A DNA stretch of 64,000 bases from an uncultured Gemmatimonadales bacterium (GTDB taxonomy: Bacteria; Gemmatimonadota; Gemmatimonadetes; Gemmatimonadales; Gemmatimonadaceae), in NCBI GenBank assembly GCA_963851265.1, contig CAWKNZ010000002.1, positions 384,001 to 448,000 of the forward strand, in the 5' to 3' direction. Shown here piece after piece: positions 479 to 64,000 of this stretch. The position numbers and the translations under genes were made by a program. The notes beneath the pieces were generated by a model, which was not told where the DNA came from, searched no databases, and saw only the letters and a list, made by a program, of their open reading frames with translations. Every line of letters starts with the position of its first letter. Position 1 is the stretch's first letter.

Positions 479-1936
479 TCAGCGCGCCGAGGCCGCCGGC
501 GCCGTCGCGACGGGCCCGCGATCGTCGAGGGGGATCATGCCGTGCCCGTTCGCCTGCCCGTTCGCGTGCCCGTCGCCTCTCTCATGCGCGTGCGCAGTCG
601 CGGGGGCGTCCGCGCGCGCGTCGCCCTGCGCGGGCTCGCCGGCGAGCCACGCGACGAGGCGGCGCTGCTGCTCGGGGAAGGCGTGCTCCGGCGTCGCGCC
701 TAACACCTTCGTCCCGGGCTGCTTGAAGAAGACGCCGAGCTGCTCCTGAACGCCGCCCTGGCCGCGGCGCCGCGCAAGGTCGAGCGTGCGCGCGATCTCG
801 ATGACGAGTGGGGCGGCGAGGATCGAGTCCTTGCAGAGGAAGTTCAGCTTGAGCTGCATCTTCTGCCCGAGGAAGCCCTCGACGTCGATGGTGTCCCAGG
901 CCTCCTTGTTGTCGCCGCGCGGGCGGTAGTACTCGATGGTGACGACGTGGTCCTCGACGGGGTAGCCGAGGATGCCGTCGAGCACCGAGCCTTTGGTGCC
1001 GAGCTTGGACGAGAGCGAGTCCTTGTCGCGGAGGGCGAGCCCGTCGCGGTTGCCGAGGATGTTGTGCGAGTACCAGCCCTCGACGTGCAGCGCGCGGTCG
1101 CGCAGCGCGGGGGCGATCACGGTCTTCACGAACGTCTGACCGGTCTTGCCGTCCTTGCCGATGACGGGCACGCCGCGCTGCTCGGCCAGCTCCACGAGCG
1201 CGGGGACGTCGACGGCCACGCTCGGCGTGAAGTTGCCGTAGGGCACGCCCTCGCGGATGGCGGCGTACGCGTAGAGCACCGCGGGGTTGAGTGCGTCATC
1301 GTCGCGGTCGAGCGCGGCCTCGAAGCCGGCGGCCGTGGCGAAGGCGGGCGCGGTGACGTCGGGGCGGGCCTCGGTGGAGGCGAGGTTGATCATCACGACA
1401 TCGTCGAGCTGCTGCTCGGCGCGGAAGCGGCACAGGTCGGCGCGGATCGCGTCGACCGCCGCGCGGGCGGTGCCGGCGTCGACGCGGTGGCCGAAGCGGT
1501 CGCCGTCGATGTTGCGGCAGTACTTGGTGGAGCCGACGGCGGGCCACGGGCGGAGCGCGGCCAGGGCGTCGCGCGCGGCGTCGAGTTGGTCGCGGTCGAG
1601 GACGCGGTGCGTGGCCGCGGCGGTGGCGAGGTCGGACCCGTCGAGGTCCCAGCCGCCGAACGCGAGGTCTGCGTACGGCGCGAGCTGCGCCGTGAGGGCG
1701 TCGGGGAGGGCGGCCAGGGGCAGTCCGGTGGTGCCCGCGGCGCCGGCCCCGAGTAGCGCGATGCCGGCCACGGCGGTGGTCGCGACCGCGCCGCCGAGCC
1801 CTACGATCGCGATGCCGAGGCGCCCGGGCCGGCGTGCGCCCACCGGCGCGCCGTGATTGCTGCTGTCAGTTGCCGTACCACGCGCCGTGCTACGGTGTGC
1901 CGTACTACGGTCCTGCGGGTGCGTTCCGTTCTGCAT
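479..1936 (-). CDS. ino1: Inositol-3-phosphate synthase (myo-inositol-1-phosphate synthase)
   Basis: Motifs GLGGAVATT (Rossmann), FGGWD, NLASTE, YGNFTP, GKDGKTGQT, NILGNRDG, GDNKEAWD, DSILAAPL. ATG at 1936 follows a GAGGAGGAGG RBS. Confidence 0.93.
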   Translation of the reverse strand: MQNGTHPQDRSTAHRSTARGTATDSSNHGAPVGARRPGRLGIAIVGLGGAVATTAVAGIALLGAGAAGTTGLPLAALPDALTAQLAPYADLAFGGWDLDGSDLATAAATHRVLDRDQLDAARDALAALRPWPAVGSTKYCRNIDGDRFGHRVDAGTARAAVDAIRADLCRFRAEQQLDDVVMINLASTEARPDVTAPAFATAAGFEAALDRDDDALNPAVLYAYAAIREGVPYGNFTPSVAVDVPALVELAEQRGVPVIGKDGKTGQTFVKTVIAPALRDRALHVEGWYSHNILGNRDGLALRDKDSLSSKLGTKGSVLDGILGYPVEDHVVTIEYYRPRGDNKEAWDTIDVEGFLGQKMQLKLNFLCKDSILAAPLVIEIARTLDLARRRGQGGVQEQLGVFFKQPGTKVLGATPEHAFPEQQRRLVAWLAGEPAQGDARADAPATAHAHERGDGHANGQANGHGMIPLDDRGPVATAPAASAR

Positions 1937-2187
1937 GTCCTCCTCCTCCTCCGCGTCCCCACCCGGCCGCGCGCGCCGCCCGTTCGACGGCGCGGGGCGG
2001 GTCGAATGGACGGTACGCGGGCAGCGGTCGGCCACTCCGATCGCCGTGGCGGGGGGGTAGCAAGGCACGTTCCGCCATCGCCCCGCGCCGTGTAGCGTAC
2101 GGCGTTCTTCCCGTGGTTTTTATTGCGTGCCGCCCCGCGGGAACCGTTGGCGGCGTCGACGACATTCTCCCTTCTGCCCGCGTTCTC

Positions 2188-3549
2188 GTGACCGATCTCA
2201 CGGCGTATTTCGACGCGCACGCCGAGCGTGCGCGCGCCGAGCTGTTCGATTTCCTGCGCATCCCGAGCGTGAGCGCGCGCTCCGAGCACGATGCCGACAC
2301 TCGGCGCGCGGCCGAGTGGGTGCGCGCGTCGCTCGAGTCCGCCGGGCTGCAGGCTTCGGTGCACGAGACGGCGGGCCACCCGATCGTGCTCGGCGAGTGG
2401 CGCGGCGCGGCGGGCGCGCCGACGCTGCTCGTCTACGGCCACTACGACGTGCAGCCGGCCGAGCCGCTCGAGCTGTGGGACTCGCCCGCGTTCGAACCCG
2501 CGGTGCGCGACGGGCGCATCTATGCGCGCGGATCGGTGGACGACAAGGGGCAGCTGTTTCTCCACGTGAAGGCGCTCGAGGCGCATCTGGCCGCGACCGG
2601 CGCGCTGCCGGTGAACGTGATCGTGCTGGCCGAGGGCGAGGAGGAGGTGGGGAGCGAGCACCTCGCCGAGTTCATCCGCGCGCACGCCGATCGGCTCGCG
2701 TGCGACGCGGTGGTGATCTCCGACTCGACGATGTTCGCGCCGGGCATTCCCAGCATCCTCAGCTCGTTGCGCGGGCTGGCGTACTTCCAACTCGACGTCC
2801 AGGGGCCGAGCGGCGACCTGCATTCGGGGATGTACGGCGGGGCCGTGGTGAACCCGGCGATGGCGCTCGCGCGCATCCTCGCCACGTTCCACGACGCCGA
2901 CGGGCGGATCGCGATCCCGGGCTTCTACGATGCGGTGCGCGCCTGGCCGGCGTCGGTGCGCGAGCAGATGCGCGGGCTGCCGTTCGACGAAGGCGAGTTC
3001 CGCGCCGGCGTGGGCGCTCCGGCGTTAGGCGGCGAGCCGGGCTACTCGGTGCTCGAGCGGCTCTGGACGCGGCCGACGTGCGAGGTGAACGGGCTGCTGT
3101 CGGGGTACACGGGCGAGGGCGCCAAGACGGTGCTGCCGGCCACGGCGATGGCGAAGGTCAGCTGCCGCCTGGTGCCCGACCAGGACCCGGAGGAGATCGC
3201 GCGGTTGGTGCAGGCGCACGTGGAGCGGGTCGCGCCGGCGGGGGTGACGGTCGCCGTGCGGCACCTGCACGGCGGTCGGCCGTGGCGGGCGGATCTGGAG
3301 GGGCCCCTGTTCGACGCGGCGAAGCGTGCGCTCGCGGCGGAGTTCGGGCGCGAGCCGGTGGTGACCGGCGAGGGCGGGTCGATCCCGGTGGTCGGCGACT
3401 TCGCGGAGATCCTCGGCGCGCCGGTGTTACTCGTGGGGTTCGGGCTGCCGGGCGAGAACGCGCACGCGCCTAACGAGTGGATCTCGGTGGAGAACTTCGA
3501 GAAGGGGATGCGGGCGATGGCGCGGCTGTATACCGAATACGGGCGGTGA
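2188..3549 (+). CDS. M20 family dipeptidase / metallo-hydrolase
   Basis: Motifs YGHYDVQP, ARGSVDDKGQ, EGEEEVGS, DLHSG, GGSIP, HAPNE. GTG start inferred. Confidence 0.92.
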   Translation: MTDLTAYFDAHAERARAELFDFLRIPSVSARSEHDADTRRAAEWVRASLESAGLQASVHETAGHPIVLGEWRGAAGAPTLLVYGHYDVQPAEPLELWDSPAFEPAVRDGRIYARGSVDDKGQLFLHVKALEAHLAATGALPVNVIVLAEGEEEVGSEHLAEFIRAHADRLACDAVVISDSTMFAPGIPSILSSLRGLAYFQLDVQGPSGDLHSGMYGGAVVNPAMALARILATFHDADGRIAIPGFYDAVRAWPASVREQMRGLPFDEGEFRAGVGAPALGGEPGYSVLERLWTRPTCEVNGLLSGYTGEGAKTVLPATAMAKVSCRLVPDQDPEEIARLVQAHVERVAPAGVTVAVRHLHGGRPWRADLEGPLFDAAKRALAAEFGREPVVTGEGGSIPVVGDFAEILGAPVLLVGFGLPGENAHAPNEWISVENFEKGMRAMARLYTEYGR

Positions 3550-3563
3550 CGCTTCCCGAAAAC

Positions 3564-9562: not shown

Positions 9563-12063
9563 CAGAAGGCCTCGCCGATCGAAAGGTGGAGCACGAGACG
9601 TCCCGTGATCTTCTTGAAGCCCGAGAGACTGTCGGCCGGGTAGTTGCGGCACCCGACACTCGCCGCGGCGTTGCCGCAGCTGCCCCCGCTCGTGAGCGGG
9701 AGCAGGCGGTAGACGCCGGCGGTGTCCGTGAACTGCGTGATCACCGGGAGGGTCTCGACGAGCTTGGGGCGGATGCCGAGGTCGACGCGGATGGGGCCGA
9801 CCGGAGAGCGGTAGCGCACACCGAAGCCGGGCGTGACGGCGAGCGTGCCCGACGCGAGGTCGCGGAGCGAGCGGTTGCCTAACGCGCCCGCGTCGACGAA
9901 CACCGCGCCGAGGAGCGGCCCGTAGATCGGCACGCGCGCCTCGACGCTCCCCTCGAGCAGCGCGGAGCCGCCGAGCGCGCGCGGCGTGAAGTAGCTGTCG
10001 CCGAGCACGGTGCGCCGTTCGGCGAAGCACTCGCGCAGCACGGGCTCGCTGTTCGGGTTGGTCGACGCGGCGGCGGCCTGGCACGCGTACGTGGTCACCG
10101 ACTGGCCGTTGACCGTCGCCGTCGACACGCCGAGCACGTCGGCGGGCGAGACGGTGAGGGTGCGCGGGCCGAGCTGGTTCTCGCCGTAGCCCCGCACGCT
10201 CTGCGCGCCGCCGGCGTAGAAGCGCACCTGCGGCGGCAGCACGCCGTTGGCGGCGGTGGCGCCGATGGCCGCCACGTAGCCGGCGCGCAGCCGCGCGGCG
10301 AGCGTGACCCGCGGGAACGCCGGCGCGGGGTGGTACGCCGCGACCTCGGCGAACACGCGATTGTACTTGAAGTCCGAGAGGGTGAACGCCGACGCGTGCT
10401 CGAGCGTCAGCTGCCCCTGCGTGCCGCGCGTGGGCTCGAGCGGGTCGTCCGTGCGCGAGAACGACGCGACGCCCGAGAGCGGCGACAGCTTCTTCTGGCT
10501 CTGCAGCACGCCGATGGTGGGCGCGTCGCAGACGCCGAAGTTGACGCAGAAGTACACGTCGCCGGCCTGCACGCGCGAGAGCGCGAAGCGGTAGTTGAGC
10601 GAGACGGGCACGTTGTCGAGCACGCGCCGGGTGAAGCTGACGTTGGCCCCCTGCGACTGGTCGACGTACACGCCCGGCGACGAGCGGCGGCTCGCGAACA
10701 CGCCGAGTCCGAGCGTGTTGCGCGGCGAGCCGAAGTACTGCTGCTGCACGTTCACGCCCACGTTGTACGTGGGCAGGAAGAACGTCGCGTCGCGGTTGCC
10801 CGGGATCTTGCTGGACTGAAACGGGTTCTGGAACGCGCCCGGCAGCGCGCGGTAGAGCCCCTTCGAGCCGAGGTTGCCGATCACGGCCTGCACGTCGAGC
10901 CGGCGCGAGGTGCCCGTGAAGTAGTTGTGCGTGAAGCGCCCTTCGGCCTGGAAGAAGTCGGCCGTGTTGAACCCGAAGCTCGTGCGCGCCTCGCGCAGCG
11001 GCGCCTCGGTCACGCAGATCGCGAGCGCCTTGGTGCTGTCGCTCGTGGCGGCCGCCGGGGCCGCGGGACGGGCCAGCCCGGCGGCCTGCGACGCGCACAC
11101 CGTGCGGCCCGTCGCGCTGTCGATCGCGACCGCCGTGTCGATCACCGCGCTGCGGAAGAGCCCCGACTCGTAGAGCGCCCGCTGGCTACGTGCGACCTCG
11201 CTGCGGTGAAACAGGTCGCCGGGCTTGAGCGTGATCGCGTCGCGGATGGTCCGGTCCTTGACCTCACGCTGCGCGCCGTTGCGGACGATGTCGATGCGCG
11301 AGATCGGCGTGAGCGGGCCCGGCGTCACCGGCACGAGCACGTCGGCGAGGTGCGTGGCGGTGTCGATCCGGATGCGCGCGCGCGTCACGACGGCGTTGCC
11401 GTACCCGTCCTCGAAGTACGCGTCCCGCACCGCGGCGACGGTCGAGTCGAGGCGGATCGTGTTGAGCGGCAGTCCGGGCTTGGGGGCGAGCAGGCCCGCG
11501 AGCTCCTTGGGGGTGACGGTCGTGCGCGGCGCGGCAACGCCCGGGCCGCCGGGGACGGCCGCCGTGTCGCCGACGGCGATCGTCCGCACCCGCGTCGGCG
11601 TGCCCTCGCGCACGGTGAACGTGACGGCGACCTCGCGGCGGTTCAGCCGCGTGACCGCCGTGTCGACCTGTGCGTCCCGCCAGCCGCGCTTGTAGTAGAA
11701 GACGAGCACGCGCACGACGTCGCGCGCGAGTTCGGTCCGGTCGAGGTACTGCCGCTGATAGATGTAAGGCGACTTCGAGAACAGGCAGAACGGCCGGAAG
11801 ATCAGCTGCAGGCACTGCGAGGCCTGCGTCGCGACCGCCGCCGAGAGCGCGGACGCGGGCACCGCGTGCACGCCGACGAAGCGCACGTCGCGCACCTCGG
11901 CGCGATCGGTCCGCGAGCGCAGGTCGCGCGCCGGTTGCGCCGACGCGGAGCGCACCGTCGCGGTGACAGCGCCGAGCGCGAGCACGGAGGACGCGAGTCC
12001 GGCGTGCGCGAGCGCGAAGACCGTCCGGGAGCGAGACGCCCGGGCGGGGAAGTGCATGACCAT
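9562..12063 (-). CDS. tamA: BamA/TamA (Omp85) family outer-membrane protein
   Basis: Signal peptide, POTRA-like repeats (YYKRGWRDAQV, LYESGLFRSA), RFYAGGAQSVRGY, GFGVRYRSPVGPIRVDLG, C-terminal LSIGEAF. Start approximate. Confidence 0.9.
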   Translation of the reverse strand: MVMHFPARASRSRTVFALAHAGLASSVLALGAVTATVRSASAQPARDLRSRTDRAEVRDVRFVGVHAVPASALSAAVATQASQCLQLIFRPFCLFSKSPYIYQRQYLDRTELARDVVRVLVFYYKRGWRDAQVDTAVTRLNRREVAVTFTVREGTPTRVRTIAVGDTAAVPGGPGVAAPRTTVTPKELAGLLAPKPGLPLNTIRLDSTVAAVRDAYFEDGYGNAVVTRARIRIDTATHLADVLVPVTPGPLTPISRIDIVRNGAQREVKDRTIRDAITLKPGDLFHRSEVARSQRALYESGLFRSAVIDTAVAIDSATGRTVCASQAAGLARPAAPAAATSDSTKALAICVTEAPLREARTSFGFNTADFFQAEGRFTHNYFTGTSRRLDVQAVIGNLGSKGLYRALPGAFQNPFQSSKIPGNRDATFFLPTYNVGVNVQQQYFGSPRNTLGLGVFASRRSSPGVYVDQSQGANVSFTRRVLDNVPVSLNYRFALSRVQAGDVYFCVNFGVCDAPTIGVLQSQKKLSPLSGVASFSRTDDPLEPTRGTQGQLTLEHASAFTLSDFKYNRVFAEVAAYHPAPAFPRVTLAARLRAGYVAAIGATAANGVLPPQVRFYAGGAQSVRGYGENQLGPRTLTVSPADVLGVSTATVNGQSVTTYACQAAAASTNPNSEPVLRECFAERRTVLGDSYFTPRALGGSALLEGSVEARVPIYGPLLGAVFVDAGALGNRSLRDLASGTLAVTPGFGVRYRSPVGPIRVDLGIRPKLVETLPVITQFTDTAGVYRLLPLTSGGSCGNAAASVGCRNYPADSLSGFKKITGRLVLHLSIGEAF

Positions 12064-12309
12064 GAGGAATTCGGCTGAGCGGACGGCGCGCCGGACGGGC
12101 GGGTCGGGAACGGCTCGGCTCGGCTCGACTGACGGCAGCGGCCGGCCGGACCACGCCCAAGCTACACCCGGCGCCCCGCGTCCCCGTACGCCTGGCACGC
12201 GGTCGCTGGCGCCGTGCGGCCTCTTGCGAGCCCGCGGTCCGCGTCGCACGCTACGTGCCCCCGACGCAGTCCTGCTCAGCAGCCTCACCAGCGACCCGAC
12301 CAGGAGCGC

Positions 12310-14436
12310 ATGATGCGAGCGTACGGCAGTGCGGAGATTCGGAACGTGGCGGTCGTCGGCCACGGCGCGAGTGGGAAGACGAGTCTCGTGGACGCCCTCT
12401 GCTTCGCGAGCGGCACGAGCAAACGCCGCGGTTCGGTGACCGCGGGTACGGCCCTCACGGATTTCACCCCCGAGGAGGCGGAGCGCGGCTTCTCGATCAC
12501 CCTCGGCTGCGCGGCGGCCGAGTGGGCCGGGTGCAAGGTCAACCTGCTCGACACGCCCGGCTACCACGACTTCGCCGGCGATGCGATGGCGGGCGTGGCG
12601 GCCGCGGACGGGGTGCTGCTGGTGGTGAGCGCGGCCGGCGGCGGCGCGGACGGCGCCGGGCTGCCGGTGGGCGCGGAGCGGATGTTCCGCGAGGCCGTCC
12701 GGCGGGACGACCCGGTGCTCGTCGCCGTGACGATGCTCGACAAGGAGCAGGCCGACTTCGACGCGACCTACCGCGGGCTGCGCGAGCGCCTGTCGCCGAA
12801 AGTGGTGCCGGTCGAGGTGCCGTTAGGCGAGGGCGCGGGGCTGCGCGGGGTGATGAACCTGTTCACGGGCCGGGCGTACGTCTACCACGAGGGCGGCCGC
12901 GCGGGCGAGTACGACGAGGTGGACGTGCCCGCGGCGGCGCGCCCGGCGTTCGACCGCTACCGCGCGGCGCTCATCGAGGCGGTGGCGGCCACCGACGACG
13001 CGCTGCTCGAGCGCTACCTCGACGGCGCCGAGCTGGGCCGCGACGAGGCGATCGGCGGGCTCAAGGAGGCCATGAAGCGCGGCGACCTGTACCCGCTGTT
13101 CGCCGTGAGCGCCGAGCGGATGATCGGCGTGCGCGCGCTGCTCGCCGAACTGGTCCAGTTGATGCCGAGTGCGTACGAAATGGAGGAGCTGCACGCGTTC
13201 ACCGGCGCGGAGGGGGGCGCGACGGTCGAGATCCACGCGGGCGACGACCGCCCGTTCGCCGCGCTCGTCTTCAAGACGCACCACGAGCCGCACCTGGGCG
13301 ACGTGAGCTACTTCCGCGTGCTGCAGGGGAGCGTCGAGGCGGGGCAGGAGGTGTTCAACGCGACGCGCGGCGTGGTCGAGAAGCTCGCGCATCTCGCGGT
13401 GCCGTGCGGGCGCGACCGGCTCGAGGTGCCGCGGCTGCACGCGGGCGACGTGGGCTGCGTGGCGAAGCTGCGCAACACGCACACCAACGACACGCTCTCC
13501 ACGCGCGAGCACCCCGTGCGCCTGCCGGCGATCGCGTTCCCCGAGCCGGCGGTGCACTTCGCCGTGCACGCCGAGCAGCGCGACGCGGAGGAGAAGCTGC
13601 AGCACGGGCTGCACCGCCTGCACGACGAGGACCCGACGTTCACCGTCTCGTACCAGCCCGAGACGCACGAGACCGTCGTCGGCGGCATGGGGGAGCGGCA
13701 CCTGGAGGTGCAGCTCGCGCGGCTCAGGCGCAAGCACGGCGTGTCGGCGGCGCTCGCGCGCCCGACGATCGCCTACCGCGAGACGATCACGGCGAGCGAG
13801 CGGGCGCAGGGGCGGCACAAGAAGCAGACCGGGGGCAAGGGGCAGTTCGGCGACGCGTGGGTGCGCCTCGCGCCGCTGCCGCGCGGGGAGGGCTACCTGT
13901 TCGAGGACCGGATCGTGGGCGGCGCGATCCCCTCGAAGTACATCCCCGCGGTCGACAAGGGGGTGCAGGAGGCCGCGGCGCGCGGCGTGCTCGCGGGCTT
14001 CCCGCTCGTCGACTTCCGCGTCGAGCTGGTCGACGGCTCGTACCACTCGGTCGACTCGAGCGAGCAGGCGTTCCGCATGGCGGGGATCCTCGCCTTTCGC
14101 GCGGGGGCGGCGAAGTGCCGCCCGGTGCTGCTCGAACCGCTCGACGTGCTGGAGGTCACCACGCCCGACCACTTCCTCGGCGACGTGTTAGGCGAGCTGT
14201 CGGGGCGACGCGGGCAGATCCTCGGCACCGAGCGGGGCGAGCACGGCACGCGCGTGCGCGCCCTGGTGCCGCAGGCGGAGCTGCACCTGTTCGCCACGCA
14301 GCTGCACTCGCTGACGCACGGGCGCGGCGAGTTCGTGCGGCGCGCGGGCGGGTACGAGCGGGCGCCGGCCGAGGTGGAACGCAAGATCGTCGCGGAGCAC
14401 GCGAAGCGGCGCGACGAGCTGATGCAGGGAGTTTGA
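12310..14436 (+). CDS. fusA2: Elongation factor G paralogue (EF-G2-like)
   Basis: IRNVAVVGHGASGKTS, NLLDTPGY, GMGERHLE, HKKQTGGKGQFG, DGSYHSVDSS, LLEP. AGGAG RBS. Confidence 0.92.
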   Translation: MMRAYGSAEIRNVAVVGHGASGKTSLVDALCFASGTSKRRGSVTAGTALTDFTPEEAERGFSITLGCAAAEWAGCKVNLLDTPGYHDFAGDAMAGVAAADGVLLVVSAAGGGADGAGLPVGAERMFREAVRRDDPVLVAVTMLDKEQADFDATYRGLRERLSPKVVPVEVPLGEGAGLRGVMNLFTGRAYVYHEGGRAGEYDEVDVPAAARPAFDRYRAALIEAVAATDDALLERYLDGAELGRDEAIGGLKEAMKRGDLYPLFAVSAERMIGVRALLAELVQLMPSAYEMEELHAFTGAEGGATVEIHAGDDRPFAALVFKTHHEPHLGDVSYFRVLQGSVEAGQEVFNATRGVVEKLAHLAVPCGRDRLEVPRLHAGDVGCVAKLRNTHTNDTLSTREHPVRLPAIAFPEPAVHFAVHAEQRDAEEKLQHGLHRLHDEDPTFTVSYQPETHETVVGGMGERHLEVQLARLRRKHGVSAALARPTIAYRETITASERAQGRHKKQTGGKGQFGDAWVRLAPLPRGEGYLFEDRIVGGAIPSKYIPAVDKGVQEAAARGVLAGFPLVDFRVELVDGSYHSVDSSEQAFRMAGILAFRAGAAKCRPVLLEPLDVLEVTTPDHFLGDVLGELSGRRGQILGTERGEHGTRVRALVPQAELHLFATQLHSLTHGRGEFVRRAGGYERAPAEVERKIVAEHAKRRDELMQGV

Positions 14437-43137: not shown

Positions 43138-43164
43138 GTTTCCGGCGCCCTTATCTTCCCGCGC

Positions 43165-44010
43165 ATGCACCGCCTCCTCGCCTGGCTCCAGCCCGCCGCC
43201 GCCCCGGCCGTCGCCTTCGGCTCGCGCCTGCAGGACAGCTTCGCCCAACTCGGCGACCTGATCCCGAACCTGCTCGCCGCGCTCGTCATCCTCTTCGCCG
43301 GCTACCTGCTGGCCAAGCTGATCCAGCGCGGCGTCGCGCGCGTGCTCGTCCGCCTGCGGCTCAACGAGGCGCTCGCGCGCGGCGGCGTCATCTCGGCGGT
43401 CGAGCGCTCGGGCGCGCACGTGAACCCGGCGCGCATCCTCGCGAACCTCGTCTTCTGGTGCGTGATGTTCGCCGTGCTGCTCGTCGCGGCGAACGCGCTC
43501 GGCCTCAAGTCGCTCGCCGACGTCTTCGCCGAACTCGTCGGCTACATCCCGAGCGTGATCGCGGCGGTCGTGATCGTGATCGCGGGCATCCTGCTCGGCG
43601 GCTTCGTCGAGGGGCTCATCCGCGCGTCGGCCGGCACGATCCACGGCGGGCCGACGCTCGCGCGCGTGGCGCGGGTGAGCGTGGTCGTGATCGCGGTGTT
43701 CATGGCGCTGCAGGAGCTCGGCGTCGCGACCGAGATCGTCACGACCGCGTTCGCGATCCTCTTCGGCGCGGTGGCGCTCGCGCTCGCGCTGTCGTTCGGG
43801 TTAGGCAATCGCGACCTCGCGGGGGAGGTCACGCGCGAGTGGTACGAGCGCTACCGGGCGGAGCGCGCCGCGATCGACCGCGAGCAGGCGATCGAGGACG
43901 CGGAGGACGAGGCGGAGCTGGCGCGGCCGGTGACCTTCCGGCGGACGCCGCGGGGCACGGCGGCCCTGCCTAACATCGCCCCGGCGCCGGCGGAGCCGCC
44001 GCGGGCGTAG
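43165..44010 (+). CDS. TM-helix repeat membrane protein (CmpX / MscS-associated type)
   Basis: IPNLLAALVIL.GY and YIPSVIAAVVIV repeats, ALALSFGLG. Confidence 0.85.
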   Translation: MHRLLAWLQPAAAPAVAFGSRLQDSFAQLGDLIPNLLAALVILFAGYLLAKLIQRGVARVLVRLRLNEALARGGVISAVERSGAHVNPARILANLVFWCVMFAVLLVAANALGLKSLADVFAELVGYIPSVIAAVVIVIAGILLGGFVEGLIRASAGTIHGGPTLARVARVSVVVIAVFMALQELGVATEIVTTAFAILFGAVALALALSFGLGNRDLAGEVTREWYERYRAERAAIDREQAIEDAEDEAELARPVTFRRTPRGTAALPNIAPAPAEPPRA

Positions 44011-52213: not shown

Positions 52214-53935
52214 CTACCGCGTGAACCCCGCCATCGTCGCGCCCATCGCGTCGATCGTCGCCCTCGCGTTCCACCGGTCGCGGCCGTTGAAGATGAACGA
52301 GAACGCGAGCACCTCGCCGTCCGCCGCCGTGACGTAGCCGCCTAACGCGATCACCTCGTCGGTCGTCCCCGTCTTGGCGTGCAGGTTCCCGACGGCCGGC
52401 GTGCCGACCATGCGGTGCAGCATCAGCGCGCTCTCCCCGGCCACCGGGAGCGACGCGTGGAAGGCCGCCCCCCACGGCGCGCGGTGCGCGTAGCCGAGCA
52501 GCTGCACCATGGCGCGCGCGGTGACGCGGTCGAGCACCGAGAGCCCGCTGCCGTCCGTCACCGACACCGCGCCCGCCCTCGCCCCCACGCGCCCGGTGAG
52601 GAAGCGGTTGAGCAGGGCGTTGCCCGCCGCCGCCGACCCCACCGAGTCGCGCCGCGGCCCGCGCACCGCGTCGCGGAAGATGAGTTCCGCGAAGTGGTTG
52701 ATGCTCTCGCGGTTCATCACCGCCACGAGTTCGCCTAACGGCGGCGATTCGAGCGCCGCGACCGAGTCCGCGCCCGCCGGGGCCGGCCCGGCCCGCAGCC
52801 CGCCGTCCACCCGCACCCCCTCGGCGGCGAGCGCGGCCGCGACGGCGCCGGCGGTGAACGTCGCGGGGTCGGCGACCGTCAGCTGCAGGAGGCGCGCGCC
52901 GGCCGCGCGCCCCACCGTGCCGCGCGCGACCACGTGCCCGTCGGTGGCGCGGTACACGTGCACGTTCACGCCGCTGCCGCCGGTGACGCGCACGGCGTTC
53001 TCGACGCGGATGCCCGTCGTCGCCGGCTCCAGCCACACGTGCCCGTCGCCCGCGACGCCGACGACCACGATGTTTTCGTCGATCGACAGCGCGCCGAACG
53101 GCGCCGCGTAGCCCGAGCCCGCGTAGCGCGTGAGCCAGCCGTCGGGGATCGTGCGCGCCTCGAAGGCCGACGCGTCGGCCACCACGTCGCCGGTCACGTG
53201 CTTCACGCCCGCCGCCGCCACGCGTCGCGCGAGGGCGCGCGCCGGGGCGTCGTAACCCGTCCCGAATTCGGTCCCGCCCCAGAACCGCCGCGAGAACGAC
53301 GGGTCGCCGTCGCCGCGCACGACGAGGTCGCCGCGCACCGTGCCGTCGGCGTCGAGCGGTCCGGTGCGGAGCACTTCGGTCCTGAACCGCCAGTCCGGCC
53401 CCAGGCGGTCGAACGCGAGCACCGACGTGAACATCTTCATCGTCGACGCGGGCATTACCGGCGCGTCGGGCTCGCGGGTGAACAGCGTGTCGCCGCGGCT
53501 CAGCGACACCACGATCGCGCCCCAGTGCCCGTCCTCGCGCCGCGACAGGATCGTGCCGAGCGCCGCGTCGAGCTCGGCCGCGCCGCGCGGGGCGGTGTAG
53601 GCCGGGCGCGCGACGGTCACGGGGTGGGCGGACGGCCGCCGGGCACCGCGGCGCGGCTTCGCGCTCGCGTTGCCGCGGGCCGTCCCGGCCCCTCTCGCGG
53701 CTCCCCTCGTGGCGCCCTTGCCAGCTCCCTTGCCAGCTCCCTTGCCAGCTCCCTTGCCGGCGCGCGGCTTCGCGCCGCGTTTGCGGGCGGGTGGACGCGT
53801 CGGCGCGGCTTGCGTGAGGGGCGCGGCATCGACGGCCGCCGCTGCGGTGTCGGACGGGAGAGACGTGAAAGCGGCGGCCGCGAGGAGCACGGCCGCCGCT
53901 CGGCGCGGCAGGCGGATGAGGACGGACGACAGCAT
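52214..53935 (-). CDS. dacB: D-Ala-D-Ala carboxypeptidase/endopeptidase (PBP4, peptidase S13)
   Basis: PASTMK (SxxK), GDGDPSF, SIN (SxN), DGSGLS, KTGT; signal peptide. Confidence 0.95.
   Translation of the reverse strand: MLSSVLIRLPRRAAAVLLAAAAFTSLPSDTAAAAVDAAPLTQAAPTRPPARKRGAKPRAGKGAGKGAGKGAGKGATRGAARGAGTARGNASAKPRRGARRPSAHPVTVARPAYTAPRGAAELDAALGTILSRREDGHWGAIVVSLSRGDTLFTREPDAPVMPASTMKMFTSVLAFDRLGPDWRFRTEVLRTGPLDADGTVRGDLVVRGDGDPSFSRRFWGGTEFGTGYDAPARALARRVAAAGVKHVTGDVVADASAFEARTIPDGWLTRYAGSGYAAPFGALSIDENIVVVGVAGDGHVWLEPATTGIRVENAVRVTGGSGVNVHVYRATDGHVVARGTVGRAAGARLLQLTVADPATFTAGAVAAALAAEGVRVDGGLRAGPAPAGADSVAALESPPLGELVAVMNRESINHFAELIFRDAVRGPRRDSVGSAAAGNALLNRFLTGRVGARAGAVSVTDGSGLSVLDRVTARAMVQLLGYAHRAPWGAAFHASLPVAGESALMLHRMVGTPAVGNLHAKTGTTDEVIALGGYVTAADGEVLAFSFIFNGRDRWNARATIDAMGATMAGFTR
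53715..53758. repeat. In-frame 12-bp tandem repeat in dacB (AGKG repeats)
   Basis: CCCTTGCCAGCT three times plus CCCTTGCC. Confidence 0.85.
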
Positions 53936-56039: not shown

Positions 56040-57364
56040 ACCAACGGCCCGAGCGCGACCGCGGCGAGCGACCCGCCGATCGCGCTCGCGCCGTACTTGC
56101 CGCCCGCGACCGAGTACGCGGTCGCGGTGACGAACACGAGCGCGGGGAGGGCCGCGAGCGCGGCCACCCCGCGCGTGCCTAACGGAAGGCGGAACGGCCC
56201 GCGCAGCCCGGGCTCGGCGCGCCGCAGCTGGACCAGCGCCCCGAACTCCAGGAACATCGCGAGCGCGTACAGCAGCGCGTCGGCGACGACGAGCTCCCGG
56301 AACGGCAGCACCGTGAACGCCGAGTAGAACAGCGCCGCCACGACGACCGCCGTGCGCGGCGTGCCGCGCGCGTCCACGCGCGCCAGCCGTCCGGGGAGCA
56401 ACCCGTCTTCGGCCAGGACCAGCGGCACGCGGCTGAAGCTGAGCAGCAGCGCGTTGTAGAGCGCGAGCGCGCTCACCATCCCCGCGACGGCCACCGCGGC
56501 CGCGAGCACCGGGCCCGCCGCGCCGCCCGTGGCCCGCGCGATCGCCGGCCACGCGCCGTCCGTCCACGTCGTCCAGTCCGACGCGGCCAGCGTGGGCAGC
56601 AGCGGCACGAAGTAACTCGCCGCGACGAGCGGTACGGCGATCGCGAGCGCGCGCGGGTACGCGCGCCCCGCGTCCTCGATCTCGCCGAGTGCGGTGCTCG
56701 CGTTGTCCCAGCCGAAGTAGTTCCACATCGCGATCGAGAGCCCGACCCCGAGCCCGGCGAACGGCGAGGCGCCCGGCCCCGATCCGACCCGCGTGAACGG
56801 CGCCCACGGCGCGTGCCACGGCGTGCCCGTCACGCCCGCGCGCCCGCTCGCGATCGCCGCGACGCCGATCGCGCCGAAGGTCGCGAGCACGAAATAGCCC
56901 GCCCACGTGCCGACGCGCCCCACGCGGAGCGCGCCGCGCAGGTTGATCGCGGTCGCGCCCCAGATCACGGCGAGGCGCACCGCCCACACGCCCCAGCCGG
57001 GCAGCCCGGGCGCGAACCACGCCAGATACTGCGTGAACAGCACCGGGTAAATGGCCATGTCGACGAGCGAGTACAGCCACGTGTACCAGCCGTTCTGGAA
57101 GGCCCAGAACGGGCCGAACGCGCGCCGCACCCAGCGGTAGTAGCCGCCCTCCTCGGGCAGCATGCTGGCGAGCTCGCCGATGAGCAGCGCCTCGGGCACG
57201 CTCCACAGCACCGGGACGACGGCGAGCAGCAGCAAGGCGAGCCCTGGCCCGACCTCGGCGACGAGCGTCTCGGTGGTGAACGCGCCGCCCGAGACGGTGA
57301 AGAAGAGCAGGAAAACGACGGCGCGCGTCGTGAGCGTGCGGCGGAGCCGGACCGGAGTGGTCAA
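55991..57364 (-). CDS. APC family amino acid/polyamine permease
   Basis: VSGGAF, ELASMLPEEGGYYRWV, WNYFGWDNAS, GEIE, SRVPLVLAEDG. TTG start inferred. Confidence 0.9.
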   Translation of the reverse strand: MTTPVRLRRTLTTRAVVFLLFFTVSGGAFTTETLVAEVGPGLALLLLAVVPVLWSVPEALLIGELASMLPEEGGYYRWVRRAFGPFWAFQNGWYTWLYSLVDMAIYPVLFTQYLAWFAPGLPGWGVWAVRLAVIWGATAINLRGALRVGRVGTWAGYFVLATFGAIGVAAIASGRAGVTGTPWHAPWAPFTRVGSGPGASPFAGLGVGLSIAMWNYFGWDNASTALGEIEDAGRAYPRALAIAVPLVAASYFVPLLPTLAASDWTTWTDGAWPAIARATGGAAGPVLAAAVAVAGMVSALALYNALLLSFSRVPLVLAEDGLLPGRLARVDARGTPRTAVVVAALFYSAFTVLPFRELVVADALLYALAMFLEFGALVQLRRAEPGLRGPFRLPLGTRGVAALAALPALVFVTATAYSVAGGKYGASAIGGSLAAVALGPLVYARAARRRSSSVRAT

Positions 57365-57490: not shown

Positions 57491-58180
57491 ATGCTCAGCC
57501 GCCCCACCGCGATCGTCTTCGATTCGAACGAGACACTGCTCGACCTCGCCGCGCTCGACCCCGCCTTCCGCGAGGCGTTCGGCGATCCGTCGGCGCGGCG
57601 CACCTGGTTCAAGCAGGTGCAGGAGCTGTTCATGACGTCGATCGCGACCGGCGTCTACCGGCCGTTCGACGAACTCGTGGACGTCGCGCTCGACATGACG
57701 GCGCAGCAGCTGGGACTCGCGGCAGTGCCCGAGGCGGGGCGGGCGCGCATCCTGGCCGAGCTGCCGGCGCTGCCGCTGCACGCGGACGTCCGCCCCGCGC
57801 TCGACCGGCTGCGCGAAGGGGGGGTGCGCGTGGCCGTCCTCACCAACTCGACGCCGAAGGCCGTCCGCGCGCAGATGACCGCGAACGACGTCGCGGACGC
57901 GTTCGAGCGCCTGCTCTCGGTCGACGCCGTCGAGCGCTACAAGCCCGCGCGGGAGGCGTACGCGTACGCCTCCCGCGAGCTCGACGTCGCACCCGGCGAG
58001 ATCCTCCTCGTCGCCGCGCACGGCTGGGACTGCGCCGGCGCGATGGCCGCGGGGTGCCGGGCCGCGTTCGTGCGGCGGCCCGGCCAGGCGTTGGACCCGA
58101 AGGGCCCGCGGCCGGAGCTGGACGTGAAGACCCTCTTCGCGCTGGTCGACGCGGTGTTAGGCGGACGAGAGCCGCGTTAG
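57491..58180 (+). CDS. Haloacid dehalogenase type II (HAD hydrolase)
   Basis: FDSNETLLD, LTNS, YKP, VAAHGWD. Confidence 0.9.
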   Translation: MLSRPTAIVFDSNETLLDLAALDPAFREAFGDPSARRTWFKQVQELFMTSIATGVYRPFDELVDVALDMTAQQLGLAAVPEAGRARILAELPALPLHADVRPALDRLREGGVRVAVLTNSTPKAVRAQMTANDVADAFERLLSVDAVERYKPAREAYAYASRELDVAPGEILLVAAHGWDCAGAMAAGCRAAFVRRPGQALDPKGPRPELDVKTLFALVDAVLGGREPR

Positions 58181-60618
58181 ACGACGAGGTTCAACAACCG
58201 CCCCGCCACGAAGATCACCTTGCGCGGCTCGCCCGTCACGAACTTCGCGATCCCCGGCTCGGCCATCGCGGCCGCGATCGCCTGCTCCTGGCCGGCGTCC
58301 TTGGGCAGCTGCACCGTGCCGCGCGTCTTCCCGTTCACCTGGACCGCGATCGTCGCCGACTCCTCCGCCGCGAGCGACGGGTCGTACGGCGGCCACCCCG
58401 AGTCGAACACGCTCGGCGCGTCGGCCCCGTGCGCGCGCGCCCACAGCTCCTCGGCCAGGTGCGGCGCGAACGGGGCCGCGAGCTGCACCAGCGGCAGGAC
58501 CTCGCCCCGGTGCGGCGTGCGCTCGCCCTGCCGCAGCACGTTCACGTAGCTCATCATCTCGGCGATCGCCGTGTTGTACGACAGCCGTGCGACGTCGTCG
58601 CCGACCTTCTTGATGGCCTGGTGCAGCCGGCGTAGCACCGCGCGGTCCGGCGCCCCGTCCGCCGTCATGTCGCGGGCGCTGTTGTACAGCCGGTCGAGGA
58701 AGCGCCGCACGCCCGAGATCCCCGCGTCGCGGAAGTCGCCGCCCTCCTCGTAGGGCCCGAGGAACATGAGGTAGGTGCGGAACGTGTCCGCGCCCCACCG
58801 CTCGATCGTGTCGTCGGGGTTGATCACGTTCCCCTTGGACTTCGACATCTTCGCGCCCTCGCGCACGATCAGCCCGTGCGCGCGGAACTTGGTGAACGGC
58901 TCGTCGAAGTCGACGTGCCCCGCGTCCTTCAACGCCATCGTCACGAACCGCGAGTAGAGCAGGTGCAGCACCGCGTGCTCGTTGCCGCCGATGTAGCTGT
59001 TTACCGGGAGCCACGTTTTCGTGCGCGCGCGGTCGAACGGCACGTCGGCGCGGTCGGCGCTCGGGTAGCGCAGGAAGTACCACGAGCTATCGAGAAACGT
59101 GTCGCTCACGTCCGTCTCGCGCCGTGCGTCGCCGCCGCACGACGGGCAGGCGACGTGGTACCACTCCGCGTCGCGCGCGAGCGGGCTCACCCCCGAGTCG
59201 TCGGGCTTGAAATCTTCGAGGTACGGCAGCACCACGGGCAGCTGCGACTCGGGCACCGGCACCGTGCCGCAGTGCTCGCAGTACACGATCGGGATCGGCG
59301 GCCCCCAGTAGCGCTGCCGCGAGATGCACCAGTCGTGCAGGCGGTAGTTGGTGGTCGCGCGCGCCGCCCCGCGCTCGGCGAGCCACGCCACCACGGCCTG
59401 CTTGCCCTCGTCGACCGTGAGGCCGTCGAACTGCGCGGACCCGACGAGCCGCGCCTCGGCGCCCTCGCCGTCGACCACCTGGACGACCGGGAGCGCGAAC
59501 CGCTCCGCGAACTCCAGGTCGCGCGCGTCGTGCGCGGGCACGGCCATGATCGCCCCCGTGCCGTATTCCATCAGCACGTAGTCGGCGATCCACACCGGCA
59601 CGGGCGCGCCCGTGGCCGGGTTGGTCGCGTACGCGCCGGTGAAGACGCCCGTCTTCTCCTTGTCGATCTTGCGGCTGACCACGTCCTGCCGGGCCGTCGC
59701 CTCGCGGTAGGCGTCGACCGCCGCGCGCTGCTCGGGTGTGGTCACCGCGTCGACCAGCGGGTGCTCGGGGGCGAGCACGAGGTACGTCGCGCCGAAGATC
59801 GTGTCGACGCGCGTGGTGAAGACGGTCGCGATCCTCTCCCCGTCGGGCGTCGGGATCGCGAAGTCGACCTGCGCGCCCGTCGAGCGCCCGATCCAGTTCC
59901 GCTGCGCGGTCTTGGTGGTGTCGCTCCAGTCCAGCCACTCGAGGTCGTCGAGCAGCCGCCCCGCGTAGTCCGAGATGCGGAAGAACCACTGCTCGAGGAA
60001 GCGCTGCTCGACCGCCGTGCCGCAGCGCTCGCAGTGGCCGTCGATCACCTGCTCGTTGGCGAGCACGGTCTTGTCGAACGGACACCAGTTGACGGCCGCC
60101 TTCTTCTTGTACGCGAGCCCCTGCTTGTGCAGTTGCAGGAACACCCACTGCGTCCACCGATAGTAGTCCGGCTGCGACGTGTCGACCGAGTAGCGCCAGT
60201 CGACCATCAGCCCCGCGCGGTCGAGCTGCCGCCGGAAGTTGGCGACGTTGCGCGGGGTCATCGCCATCGGGTGCGCGCCGACCTTGAGCGCGTAGTTCTC
60301 GGAGTGGATGCCGAACGCGTCGAAGCCTAACGGCTGGAAGACCGTGCGCCCCTGCTGGCGCATGAAGCGCCCCTGGATGTCGGTGCCCGTGAACGCGAAC
60401 AGGTTCCCCACGTGCAGCCCCTCGGCCGACGGGTAGGGGAACATCATGAGCTGGTAGTACGGTGGGCGCGCGGGGTCGCTCGCGTCGAGGTCGGCGTGGT
60501 TCGTGCCCCGCTCCTGCCACCGGCGCTGCCACGCGGCCTCGACGGCGGCGGGGTCGTAGCGGTCGGGTTCGGGTGCGGGCGCGGACGGCGCGGGGGGAGA
60601 CGAGGTCGGGACGGTCAT
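58177..60618 (-). CDS. leuS: Leucine--tRNA ligase
   Basis: MFPYPS..LHVGN (HIGH-like), editing domain VFTTRVDT / GTGAIMAVPAHD, DWCISRQRYWG, KMSKS, VQVNGK. Confidence 0.98.
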   Translation of the reverse strand: MTVPTSSPPAPSAPAPEPDRYDPAAVEAAWQRRWQERGTNHADLDASDPARPPYYQLMMFPYPSAEGLHVGNLFAFTGTDIQGRFMRQQGRTVFQPLGFDAFGIHSENYALKVGAHPMAMTPRNVANFRRQLDRAGLMVDWRYSVDTSQPDYYRWTQWVFLQLHKQGLAYKKKAAVNWCPFDKTVLANEQVIDGHCERCGTAVEQRFLEQWFFRISDYAGRLLDDLEWLDWSDTTKTAQRNWIGRSTGAQVDFAIPTPDGERIATVFTTRVDTIFGATYLVLAPEHPLVDAVTTPEQRAAVDAYREATARQDVVSRKIDKEKTGVFTGAYATNPATGAPVPVWIADYVLMEYGTGAIMAVPAHDARDLEFAERFALPVVQVVDGEGAEARLVGSAQFDGLTVDEGKQAVVAWLAERGAARATTNYRLHDWCISRQRYWGPPIPIVYCEHCGTVPVPESQLPVVLPYLEDFKPDDSGVSPLARDAEWYHVACPSCGGDARRETDVSDTFLDSSWYFLRYPSADRADVPFDRARTKTWLPVNSYIGGNEHAVLHLLYSRFVTMALKDAGHVDFDEPFTKFRAHGLIVREGAKMSKSKGNVINPDDTIERWGADTFRTYLMFLGPYEEGGDFRDAGISGVRRFLDRLYNSARDMTADGAPDRAVLRRLHQAIKKVGDDVARLSYNTAIAEMMSYVNVLRQGERTPHRGEVLPLVQLAAPFAPHLAEELWARAHGADAPSVFDSGWPPYDPSLAAEESATIAVQVNGKTRGTVQLPKDAGQEQAIAAAMAEPGIAKFVTGEPRKVIFVAGRLLNLVV

Positions 60619-60921
60619 GCGAGCGAGCGAGAAGGGGAAACTCGCAATCTAGCCGCCACTGACACCGCTCACGGCGCGGGCGGATCCGACGCCGTGCGCT
60701 CGGCGCACCGGCCGTTCACCTGCGCGCTGTTCGGGCGCGGAGCGATCGTGCCGCGTGCAATCCGGGCCGTGAAGGCCAGCGGTCACGAAGGGAGCGGGAA
60801 CGGCGGCGTCGGGCGATCTCGCAAGTCCTTCCACTCGCACGATCGCGGCTCGGTGCACAGGAAATGCGTTAATGACGGGACCGTTACTCTGTGCTCCCGT
60901 CTGCCACGATCAAGAGCGACC

Positions 60922-61926: not shown

Positions 61927-61950
61927 CCGCTGGCGCGGAGCGCCGGGGCC

Positions 61951-63243: not shown

Positions 63244-63353
63244 ACCCCGGACGCCGCGTCTGGTGCACGCCCGTCACACTCGTGACGATGCCGAATCCCG
63301 TTCGCCGGCATGCCCGCTCCCCCGCCTCTGGTACCGCAGGTACGTTGGTCGCC

Positions 63354-64000
63354 ATGACCGCTTCTACCCTCACGCCCTCACCCCCCCCGATCGCCCCCGC
63401 GGCGCTGGCAGACCGCCTGCGCGCGACGACGTTCCTCGCCGGCCTGCCGGACGCGTACTTCTGGCGTCTCGCGCGCGCGTTCACGCTGCGGCCCTTCGAC
63501 GAGGAAGCGACGCTGTTCGAGGAGGGTGCGCCGCGACAGTTCCTCGCCGTGCTGCTCTCCGGGAGCGTGTCGGTCGAGAAGGTCGCTGAGGGGCGCGCCG
63601 TGCGGCTCTCGACCTTCGGCGTCGGCGAGGCGGTGGGCGAAGGCCTGCTGCTCGGCGACACGAACGCGCACGGCACCACGGCGCGCGCCCTCACGCCGGT
63701 CACGGCCGCCGTGATGACGCGCGCGCAGATGGACGACCTCCTCAAGGAGAACCCGCCCATCTTCGCGGCCCTCGTCGCGCGTGCCGCACGCGCGATCTCG
63801 CAGCGCCTGCGCGCGGCCGACGCGACGCTCCTCGGCCACGGCCGCGCGACCGGCTTCACCGGCGCCGGCACGCGCCGCGAGCACGACCTGTTAGGCACCC
63901 GCGAGGTGCCGGCCGACGCACTCTACGGCGTCCAGACGCTGCGCGCGCTCGAGAACTTCCCGATCACGAAGGTGCCGCTGCGCGAGTTTCCCGCGCTCGT
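63354..64000 (+). CDS. aspA: Aspartate ammonia-lyase with an N-terminal cyclic-nucleotide-binding domain (runs off the window)
   Basis: Not in the ORF track. Manual translation: ...[21 protein letters not shown]...[10 protein letters not shown]...HGTTARAL... (cNMP fold), then [33 protein letters not shown] (aspartase/fumarase N-terminus). Confidence 0.88.

Follow-up and report, generated by a model that had tools for sequence, protein, structure and literature searches.

The heptamer GTTAGGC as a dispersed duplex-DNA signal in Gemmatimonadota, with a possible role in DNA uptake or exchange

Short DNA words that recur throughout a genome have been linked to several processes. Chi and the polar segregation sequences KOPS and SRS are asymmetric, over-represented words with most of their copies on the leading strand. 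To our knowledge, DNA uptake guided by a sequence tag has been described in just two families of Proteobacteria: the Neisseriaceae, where the DNA uptake sequence (DUS) is read by the minor pilin ComP, and the Pasteurellaceae, which use the uptake signal sequence (USS), for which we know of no receptor. According to the available parts of one study, both tags are evenly spaced, lack orientation bias, lie to a large share inside open reading frames (ORFs), spread by molecular drive and are accompanied by mismatched variants that are gradually over-represented (PMC1939737). The available text of a second study proposes that HIP1 (GCGATCGC) of cyanobacteria is also an uptake or transformation signal (PMC13756078). 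In Neisseria, the accessible sections of a third report describe NTS/SRM repeats that are cut by Ssn GIY-YIG single-stranded DNA nucleases and modulate transformation (PMC11893778). Here, we describe a further word, GTTAGGC (reverse complement GCCTAAC), found in a 64,000-nucleotide stretch of an uncultured Gemmatimonadales soil bacterium of the Gemmatimonadaceae (assembly GCA_963851265.1, contig CAWKNZ010000002.1, positions 384,001 to 448,000). This whole stretch is called the window (G000:C2:384001-448000), and its genome, G000, comprises 4.60 Mb in 12 contigs at 73% GC and is 94% complete. In its extended form YGTTAGGC (C preferred over T at position -1, with weak preferences for W at -3 and T at +9), the word is a real duplex-DNA signal, which implies a putative sequence-specific protein that reads it in either orientation.

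The window contains 26 exact copies, while 100 dinucleotide-preserving shuffles gave 2.0 on average (standard deviation 1.5, maximum 6) and in no case reached at least 26. A first-pass annotation, made from the letters of the window, had listed 26 positions with their strands, and every one is an exact match; its single variant, ATTAGGC at 35439, is also there, and the 75% GC that it assumed is close to the 0.70-0.78 found per 4 kb. Both strands of the window together hold 62 TTA trinucleotides, of which 26 fall within GTTAGGC. An ORF-level classifier assigned 22 copies to the Leu-Gly frame nnG-TTA-GGC, two to an antisense G-CCT-AAC arrangement (3468 and 43968) and two elsewhere. One of the latter, at 9877, reads nnG-TTA-GGC within a Pfam-supported Omp85 ORF (9562-12567). 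The copy at 26477 is ambiguous, since a 1383-nt ORF would read it as GTT-AGG-C and a 447-nt ORF as TTA-GGC. The annotation had counted 24 copies in the Leu-Gly frame; 23-24 of the 26 bear this out, with only the frame at 26477 in doubt, and the two antisense Pro-Asn copies it reported are real, synonymous recodings.

Across G000, GTTAGGC occurs 1762 times, or about once per 2.6 kb, and there is no strand skew beyond gene orientation, as had been suggested for the window (885 copies forward, 877 reverse). Of 6001 TTA trinucleotides in this genome, 1762 (29%) lie inside GTTAGGC, and the next context accounts for 213. All seven positions are specific: single-mismatch neighbours that keep TTA or TAG number between 8 and 213. 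A neighbour-normalised k-mer scan returned GTTAGGC and its sub- and superstrings as the only outliers, with CGTTAGGC as the top 8-mer (1396 copies). Gene calls were ORF calls based on GC content at third codon positions (GC3) rather than the product of a trained gene finder, and the local frame classifier and the ORF-level classifier differ at some sites; the counts relied on come from long ORFs with GC1>GC2 and GC3>0.85 only. In 1364 such confidently framed ORFs, 635 sense and 169 antisense copies were observed, a strong excess over the 25.1±4.8 and 20.6±5.3 left by synonymous-codon shuffling (n=20). TTA codons in these ORFs are spread unevenly over contexts, with 610 of 794 standing in G-TTA-GGC. 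A point absent from the first-pass annotation is that the density in noncoding DNA resembles that in coding DNA: under a conservative mask, noncoding sequence (10.3% of G000) holds 151 copies, or 0.32/kb vs 0.39/kb elsewhere. Two inverted arrangements of two copies, at G000:C2:11211-11230 and G000:C1:176716-176729, were also seen as perfect palindromes: one consists of GCCTAACGTTAGGC back to back, and the other is a hairpin whose ~17-bp stem holds GTTAGGC and which recalls the DUS-pair terminators of Neisseria.

The (C)GTTAGGC signal acts at the DNA level. Among S/P/T/A-Leu-Gly opportunities, 471 of 2446 (19.3%) carry the word in the sense orientation, and among Pro-Asn opportunities followed by G, 109 of 429 (25.4%) carry it antisense. 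The two orientations share a flank rule at position -1 of the motif strand, C>T>>A,G, with saturations for C, T, A and G of 19.3, 7.4, 2.6 and 1.2% in sense and 25.4, 9.4, 2.7 and 2.4% in antisense; the weak preferences for W at -3 and T at +9 are likewise found in both frames. Since both orientations behave equally per opportunity, the excess of sense copies reflects the numbers of Leu-Gly and Pro-Asn dipeptides and not a strand preference. The recoding routes are CTC/CTG-GGC to TTA-GGC for Leu-Gly and, on the opposite strand, CCG-AAC to CCT-AAC for Pro-Asn. That antisense Pro-Asn recodings obey the same flank rule as sense copies bears out the earlier suggestion of a constraint on DNA and not on translation. 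The genome encodes tRNA-Leu(UAA). An alignment of lpdA from 19 genomes of the family illustrates the recoding: at conserved Leu-Gly positions, motif-rich genomes use TTA-GGC, and the others use CTC, CTT or CTG followed by GGC, GGT or GGG. At the K-T-L-G-G stretch, TTA-GGC is present in all five genomes of the genus and in G018, and the remaining 13 of 19 use CTC, CTT or CTG. Gains at other lpdA columns are private to one or two genomes, with convergent gains in G012 and G017, and each site requires 2-3 substitutions of different types. Saturation climbs with the GC3 of the gene, from 0.11 to 0.30, a trend that miscalled low-GC3 ORFs may inflate and that would fit a recombination-linked process.

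GTTAGGC is maintained against codon bias. In nine species-pair comparisons, which are not independent, it is identical at 110 of 208 aligned sites (52.9%), compared with 31.3% for all 7-mers (22539/72043), 33.0% for GCTCGGC (289/875) and 25 of 143 sites for GCTGGGC. Between G236 and G293, 25 of 31 sites are kept at 77.9% nucleotide identity. At sites that are not kept, GCTCGGC, GCTGGGC or GTTGGGC mostly stands in the other genome, so sites flip between the motif and preferred codons, and intermediates are rare. Orthologous positions in relatives, a comparison that the first-pass annotation had proposed, show the motif kept better than codon-optimal GCTCGGC. The copies in the window are listed below, together with their state in the relatives G001, G002 and G004 where noted.

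698..704, minus strand: GTTAGGC copy in the Leu-Gly frame (nnG-TTA-GGC) of a myo-inositol-1-phosphate synthase ORF; kept in G002
3024..3030, plus strand: GTTAGGC copy in the Leu-Gly frame of an M20 peptidase ORF (1834-3549); kept in G002
3468..3474, minus strand: GTTAGGC copy antisense to the M20 peptidase gene, whose strand reads G-CCT-AAC (Pro-Asn); G002 has GTTCGGC (CCG-AAC, also Pro-Asn)
9877..9883, minus strand: GTTAGGC copy in the Leu-Gly frame of an Omp85/TamA-like ORF (9562-12567); G002 has GCTCGGA
12822..12828, plus strand: GTTAGGC copy in the Leu-Gly frame of an ORF without a Pfam match
14187..14193, plus strand: GTTAGGC copy in the Leu-Gly frame of the same Pfam-less ORF as the copy at 12822
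16780..16786, minus strand: GTTAGGC copy in the Leu-Gly frame; kept in G002 and G001
17290..17296, minus strand: GTTAGGC copy in the Leu-Gly frame; kept in G001, GCTCGGC in G002
20972..20978, plus strand: GTTAGGC copy in the Leu-Gly frame of an AcrB-family ORF (20301-25046); kept in G004, GTTGGGC in G001
23597..23603, plus strand: GTTAGGC copy in the Leu-Gly frame of the AcrB-family ORF (20301-25046); kept in G004 and G001
24389..24395, plus strand: GTTAGGC copy in the Leu-Gly frame of the ORF at 20301-25046 (outer-membrane efflux, OEP, part); kept in G004
26477..26483, plus strand: GTTAGGC copy of ambiguous frame; kept in G004 and G002
30230..30236, minus strand: GTTAGGC copy in the Leu-Gly frame of an M20 peptidase ORF (30017-31201); kept in G004, G002 and G001
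31396..31402, minus strand: GTTAGGC copy in the Leu-Gly frame of a GHMP kinase ORF; kept in G002 and G001, GTTGGGC in G004
31504..31510, minus strand: GTTAGGC copy in the Leu-Gly frame of a GHMP kinase ORF; kept in G004 only
35439..35445, plus strand: one-mismatch variant ATTAGGC, of which there are only 14 copies genome-wide
38646..38652, minus strand: GTTAGGC copy in the Leu-Gly frame, lpdA column 308; TTA-GGC in four of five genus genomes, CTG/CTC-GGC in most outgroups
39411..39417, minus strand: GTTAGGC copy in the Leu-Gly frame, lpdA column 41, in the conserved K-T-L-G-G
42653..42659, plus strand: GTTAGGC copy in the Leu-Gly frame of a zinc alcohol dehydrogenase ORF; kept in G004, G002 and G001
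43800..43806, plus strand: GTTAGGC copy in the Leu-Gly frame; private to G000, with GCTGGGG, GCTCGGC and GTTGGGC in relatives
43968..43974, minus strand: GTTAGGC copy antisense to an ORF (43138-44007) whose strand reads G-CCT-AAC; GTTCGGC (CCG-AAC) in G004, kept in G001
52340..52346, minus strand: GTTAGGC copy in the Leu-Gly frame of an S13 D-Ala-D-Ala carboxypeptidase ORF; kept in G004 and G002
52733..52739, minus strand: GTTAGGC copy in the Leu-Gly frame of the same S13 carboxypeptidase ORF as the copy at 52340; kept in G002 only
56177..56183, minus strand: GTTAGGC copy in the Leu-Gly frame; kept in G004 and G001
58156..58162, plus strand: GTTAGGC copy in the Leu-Gly frame; private to G000
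60325..60331, minus strand: GTTAGGC copy in the Leu-Gly frame of leuS; kept in G004, GTTGGGC in G001
63890..63896, plus strand: GTTAGGC copy in the Leu-Gly frame; private to G000, with GCTCGGC in all three relatives

Copies of the motif also avoid each other. This was assessed by 300 permutations that reassigned the motif among equivalent opportunity sites of the same class and GC3 tercile. Only one pair of copies was observed 0-100 bp apart (permutation mean 25.5), with three at 100-200 bp (24.5), seven at 200-300 bp (25.0) and 15 at 300-400 bp (22.2); beyond 400 bp, observed pairs approximate the permutation mean. Pairs of one sense and one antisense copy are depleted as well (0 vs 12.2±3.2 below 200 bp and 2 vs 18.3±4.1 below 300 bp), so the repulsion is not about TTA codons in mRNA. 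Gaps shorter than 200 bp number 46 in the whole of G000, where 130 are expected. In sampled DNA of five relatives there are 24 such gaps vs 44.4 expected, and the count is lower than expected in all five. Short and long gaps are both depleted in G012 (237 kb; 1.41 copies/kb, GC 0.63), where the coefficient of variation of the gaps is 0.74. Under a mutational bias acting site by site, copies should be independent; the repulsion observed is what a costly signal that reaches over a few hundred base pairs predicts. Retention between species and mutual avoidance together argue against purely mutational and purely translational origins. G012 is also the densest genome sampled, with 335 copies of GTTAGGC in its 237 kb vs 169 of codon-optimal GCTCGGC. 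Variants at the last position are fairly common there (GTTAGGT 74, GTTAGGG 40), which hints at a somewhat looser specificity.

The distribution of the signal is limited to certain lineages. Enrichment was scored across 401 genomes of the phylum as CGTTAGGC reaching at least twice its reversed control; these tallies take in the unpublished G011, G079, G118 and G199 as motif-poor rows, and no claim depends on them. Sixteen genomes are enriched: 13 of 94 in the family of the window (f1), in genera g1, g32, g35, g39, g41, g42, g44, g45 and g47, and three of 166 in a sister family (f2), all of genus g75, which also has three genomes that are not rich. No enrichment was found in the other families sampled, and the motif is under-represented outside enriched genera. 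The four other genomes of the genus carry 977-3304 copies vs 187-365 of the reversed control. Genus g9 is also rich, with 7758 copies in 5.1 Mb, and G008, G017, G018 and G030 are intermediate. All four contigs of G300 carry the motif, at 0.66-0.95/kb. In the cultured species Gemmatirosa kalamazoonensis, 50 kb of the PacBio-finished plasmid 1 (NZ_CP007129.1, 100001-150000) holds 42 copies, with one copy of the control word and none of any of the seven neighbours tested. Recent loss was considered for G289 of genus g42, in which G236, G293 and G397 are rich, and rejected, as this genome is more distant (70.8% vs 77.9% identity) and has unrelated states at eight of eight aligned sites.

A signal that works at the level of the duplex, is free of orientation, is maintained, occurs once per neighbourhood, is confined to certain lineages and is present on all replicons points first to a tag for DNA uptake or exchange, which we rank above a site for a nucleoid or repair protein. 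By analogy with DUS and USS, this reading is put forward tentatively, with a probability that we would place a little short of even. The motif would spread wherever the protein sequence permits, chiefly by synonymous routes, and would then be held against codon bias. One copy would serve the ~300 bp around it, so that a second copy nearby would bring only codon cost and be lost. The reader would likely be part of a DNA-exchange route, namely natural transformation through the encoded ComEC/ComEA/secretin machinery, in which fragments with the motif may be preferentially taken up or integrated. The motif would accumulate by molecular drive, like DUS in the Neisseriaceae and USS in the Pasteurellaceae.

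The likeness to DUS and USS, as far as the available parts of their description extend, is broad. GTTAGGC is short, non-palindromic and hyper-abundant, at about one copy per 0.7-2.6 kb. It is found in both orientations with no replication polarity, lies largely within genes in the least costly frames, is spaced more evenly than chance, is maintained against decay, and is present in related genera and missing in others. HIP1 resembles it, in the text available on that system, as a hyper-abundant intragenic word with quasi-periodic spacing and evolutionary conservation; however, HIP1 is a palindrome and a target of the methylases DmtA and DmtC, whereas GTTAGGC is asymmetric. NTS/SRM repeats share with it their abundance in the genome, but the Ssn/NTS system was set aside, as the accessible sections describe SRMs as hairpin-forming intergenic repeats of 20-50 nt clustered around ssn, unlike an intragenic 7-mer (PMC11893778). 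The first-pass annotation had matched the word to no motif known to it, and the literature searched likewise gave no described uptake, Chi or HIP1 motif that matches. No description of GTTAGGC enrichment was found either, subscription journals being outside the coverage; among the matches listed, the bare word appears in primers or unrelated sequence text.

Several observations weigh against an uptake tag. One-mismatch variants are rare (8-118 copies), in contrast to the gradual over-representation described in the available account of DUS and USS; the core is 7-8 nt and not 9-12 nt, neither noncoding DNA nor terminators show an excess, and inverted pairs of the terminator type are few in G000. 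The phylum is a different one. A range of 300 bp is short compared with the transformation tracts known elsewhere. ComEC, a ComEA-like protein and secretins are encoded in G000, G012, G236 and G300, but equally in the motif-poor G009 and G289, and so do not discriminate. A ComP-type receptor was not found, the ComP_DUS pilin (PF16732) having no match in G000, G002-G004 or G012; it exceeds the cut-off in one of 31 genomes, the motif-poor G014. Searches of 200 kb each of G006 and G015 gave no alternative hyper-abundant words ('dialects'). A search of the literature for 'uptake sequence' found no work on Gemmatimonadota, again with subscription journals outside its coverage, and the DUS literature contains no Gemmatimonadota case among the matches listed. 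The identity of the word with the integron core, discussed below, is also unexplained by this reading. Type IV secretion shows no association with the motif, VirB4 being found in only two of 31 relatives, which is a further difference from HIP1.

If GTTAGGC is an uptake tag, the independent cases would number three, the newest of them in a soil phylum that is abundant yet hardly cultivated; genome self-tagging would then be shown to be a general strategy, and soil gene flow would become easier to follow. If it is not, a putative protein that reads 7-8 bp every 0.7-2.6 kb, with a range of ~300 bp and overriding the codon bias of core genes, would amount to new chromosome biology. The existence of a cultured, PacBio-finished species with the motif makes the question directly testable.

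Rather unlikely, although a serious contender, is that GTTAGGC serves inside the cell, where a factor associated with the nucleoid, with repair or with the marking of 'self-DNA' would bind or nucleate at it and act over a few hundred base pairs; selection for coverage, and not drive, would then keep one copy per neighbourhood. The ~300-bp exclusion zone in G000 is consistent with such a factor, as are the quasi-regular spacing in G012 with its depletion of long gaps, the strong conservation between species and the equal density on all four contigs of G300. The preferences for W at -3 and T at +9 are symmetric about the motif centre and suggest a footprint of ~13 bp. The region near the origin is motif-poor in the three genus genomes examined, G000, G004 and G001, and a stretch of G000 that holds gidA/mnmG, parA, parB and mnmE, the classical origin neighbourhood, has no copies at all. 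This total desert is, however, specific to G000: in G004 and G001 the matching region is motif-poor yet holds some copies, in G300 and G236 it is normal, and a general desert was rejected since all four of these genomes carry copies at most 5 kb from gidA. The nucleoid and segregation sites known are, for the most part, longer palindromes that number tens to hundreds; a candidate reader was not found, and the factor would have to be gained and lost across patchy genera. The stretch itself (C1:182876-227962; 45,086 bp) is the longest motif-free one in G000, the next longest being 22 kb. Its GC is normal (0.738), and its 49 Leu-Gly opportunities yield no copies, where about eight are expected. 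As to an origin as a foreign island, no donor was found: among 151 genomes of the family, the congeners still match its DNA best (78-79%).

A doubtful alternative is that an integron-type tyrosine recombinase, or a relative of one, reads GTTAGGC, whose spread would then be tied to integron biology, for example as attG-like secondary sites or by way of a route for uptake or capture tuned to the attC core. The first-pass annotation had missed that the word fits the integron core GTTRRRY, in what we take to be its canonical form; the same seven letters form the R' box of attC and the right half of attI. G000 has attC-like hairpins carrying CGTTAGGCG / CGCCTAACG, folded from six GCCTAAC...GTTAGGC pairs at a distance of 90-114 bp. 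In each of the six, the right-hand box is preceded by C at -1, and five have CGTTAGGCG; these flanks equal the genome-wide consensus, and periodic pairs resembling a cassette array are also present in G021 and G023. Yet an integron core functions either as one of the two boxes of a folded attC or within an attI next to intI, whereas attC-like pairs account for only roughly a dozen copies out of 1762, and ~99% (~1750) are single, dispersed and mostly intragenic; recombination sites within genes would presumably be harmful. The integrase does not track the enrichment either, which makes a direct role for IntI unlikely. It exceeds the cut-off in 18 of 31 relatives, 12 of them motif-poor (G005, G006, G007, G009, G010, G014, G019, G020, G025, G026, G028 and G029). 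In motif-rich genomes, by contrast, it is split in G000, interrupted by a stop in G001 and frameshifted in G012, and it was not found in G002, G008 and G018. On this co-occurrence, the integrase was rejected as the cause.

Pairs with an inner stem lie at G000:C10:188936-214564, C6:1592-1708 and C9:56165-56285, and those on C10, near the contig end, look like an integron cassette array. The integrase of G000 (C6:3005-6044) is in two pieces, one at 5244-6044 that covers model positions 2-265 and one at 3005-3166 that covers 260-313; the ~2 kb between them includes a 529-aa ORF.

The exact match to the integron core nevertheless raises the question of how cassette capture relates to DNA import. 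In the boldest form of the uptake reading, to which we give a slimmer chance still, the Gemmatimonadaceae would possess a sequence-specific uptake or exchange system, the first outside the Proteobacteria, whose tag is the integron core and whose receptor recognises CGTTAGGC(G), the box flanking each attC. Environmental cassettes and DNA of kin would then be preferentially imported, the thousands of intragenic copies would be a by-product of molecular drive, and natural transformation would be mechanistically linked to the capture of integron cassettes.

It is very improbable that GTTAGGC has no reader and merely records mutation that depends on context or repair that is biased, for instance through a process like very short patch (VSP) repair or a methylation-linked ratchet. 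Single-mismatch neighbours are sharply depleted, as is known from VSP-type word biases, and densities vary continuously among lineages. Independent mutation, however, would not predict repulsion within 300 bp whatever the orientation, and 2-3 substitutions of different types are required per site. The enzymes do not support it either. Neither Vsr (PF03852) nor a C5 methylase (PF00145) has a match in G000. Its N6-adenine methylase genes (PF02384) at C7:771474-772495 and C9:923-1858 are broken into several frames each and look like decayed restriction-modification systems. No intact PF00145, PF01555 or PF02384 gene was found in G000, nor any methylase common to G000, G236 and G012, though 5-methylcytosine or a methylase of another family may still be involved. 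GTTAGGC is also missing from the published N6-methyladenine (m6A) motifs of Gemmatirosa kalamazoonensis, though this species carries it and SMRT (single-molecule real-time) sequencing detects 5-methylcytosine poorly; this, too, sets it apart from HIP1. The SMRT methylome in question reports RGATCY, ATGCAC and CCAGN7TCA as the only m6A motifs (PMC3974934). The methyltransferase-driven ratchet offered by the first-pass annotation finds no support and was rejected, given the missing Vsr and C5 methylase, the broken N6 genes, the methylome and the repulsion between copies.

Even less credible is a polar recombination or segregation signal, whether Chi read by RecBCD or AddAB, or KOPS/SRS read by FtsK. 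Gene strand bias points to converging replichores in C2 0.8-1.6 Mb; there, the presumed leading strand carries 167 copies (~73%) and the lagging strand 63, and the Chi of E. coli has a similar skew. This skew follows the genes: in confidently called genes, sense and antisense copies number 89:12 on the leading and 16:5 on the lagging strand (Fisher p = 0.17), and a genome-wide variant gives 75:8 vs 9:2 (p = 0.33), both tests having low power. Together with the equal saturation of the two orientations, these ratios indicate, within that limited power, that orientation follows genes and not replication, which speaks against the replication-polarised function that had been among the options first listed. 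RecC was found in none of five genomes examined (0/5), and the AddAB-type nuclease domain (PDDEXK_1) does not track the motif, being present in G000 and the motif-poor G009 and G289 but not in the motif-rich G236 and G012. GTTAGGC, moreover, uses the rarest codons, unlike the known Chi words, which draw on common ones.

That the motif arose as an artefact of assembly or base calling, or through a translational effect of the TTA codon, has next to no probability: although G000 has only 12 contigs and may be a long-read assembly, and most copies share one reading frame, the motif is enriched in five genus genomes and in the PacBio-finished record of a cultured species as well as in the fragmented assemblies of G003 (960 contigs) and G012 (300), no neighbour word is emptied, orthologous sites are common to separate assemblies, and antisense and noncoding copies obey the same rules, which, with the sense-antisense repulsion, rules out a translational cause.

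Two minor observations concern other features. The top word of G020, a genome of a motif-poor sister family, was considered as a dialect and rejected, as it belongs to an intergenic tandem and inverted repeat of a different kind. In G020:C1:500001-600000, these repeats consist of tandem AGTTGCGAG units, often in inverted pairs ~110 bp apart, at about one per 6 kb, and the family is a REP-like (repetitive extragenic palindromic) element. Within the window, the 1581-aa ORF at 20301-25046 (plus strand) joins a full AcrB/RND (resistance-nodulation-division) pump (residues 21-1034) and a pair of outer-membrane efflux domains (1389-1571) in one frame, and is either a fusion or two genes without a stop between them.

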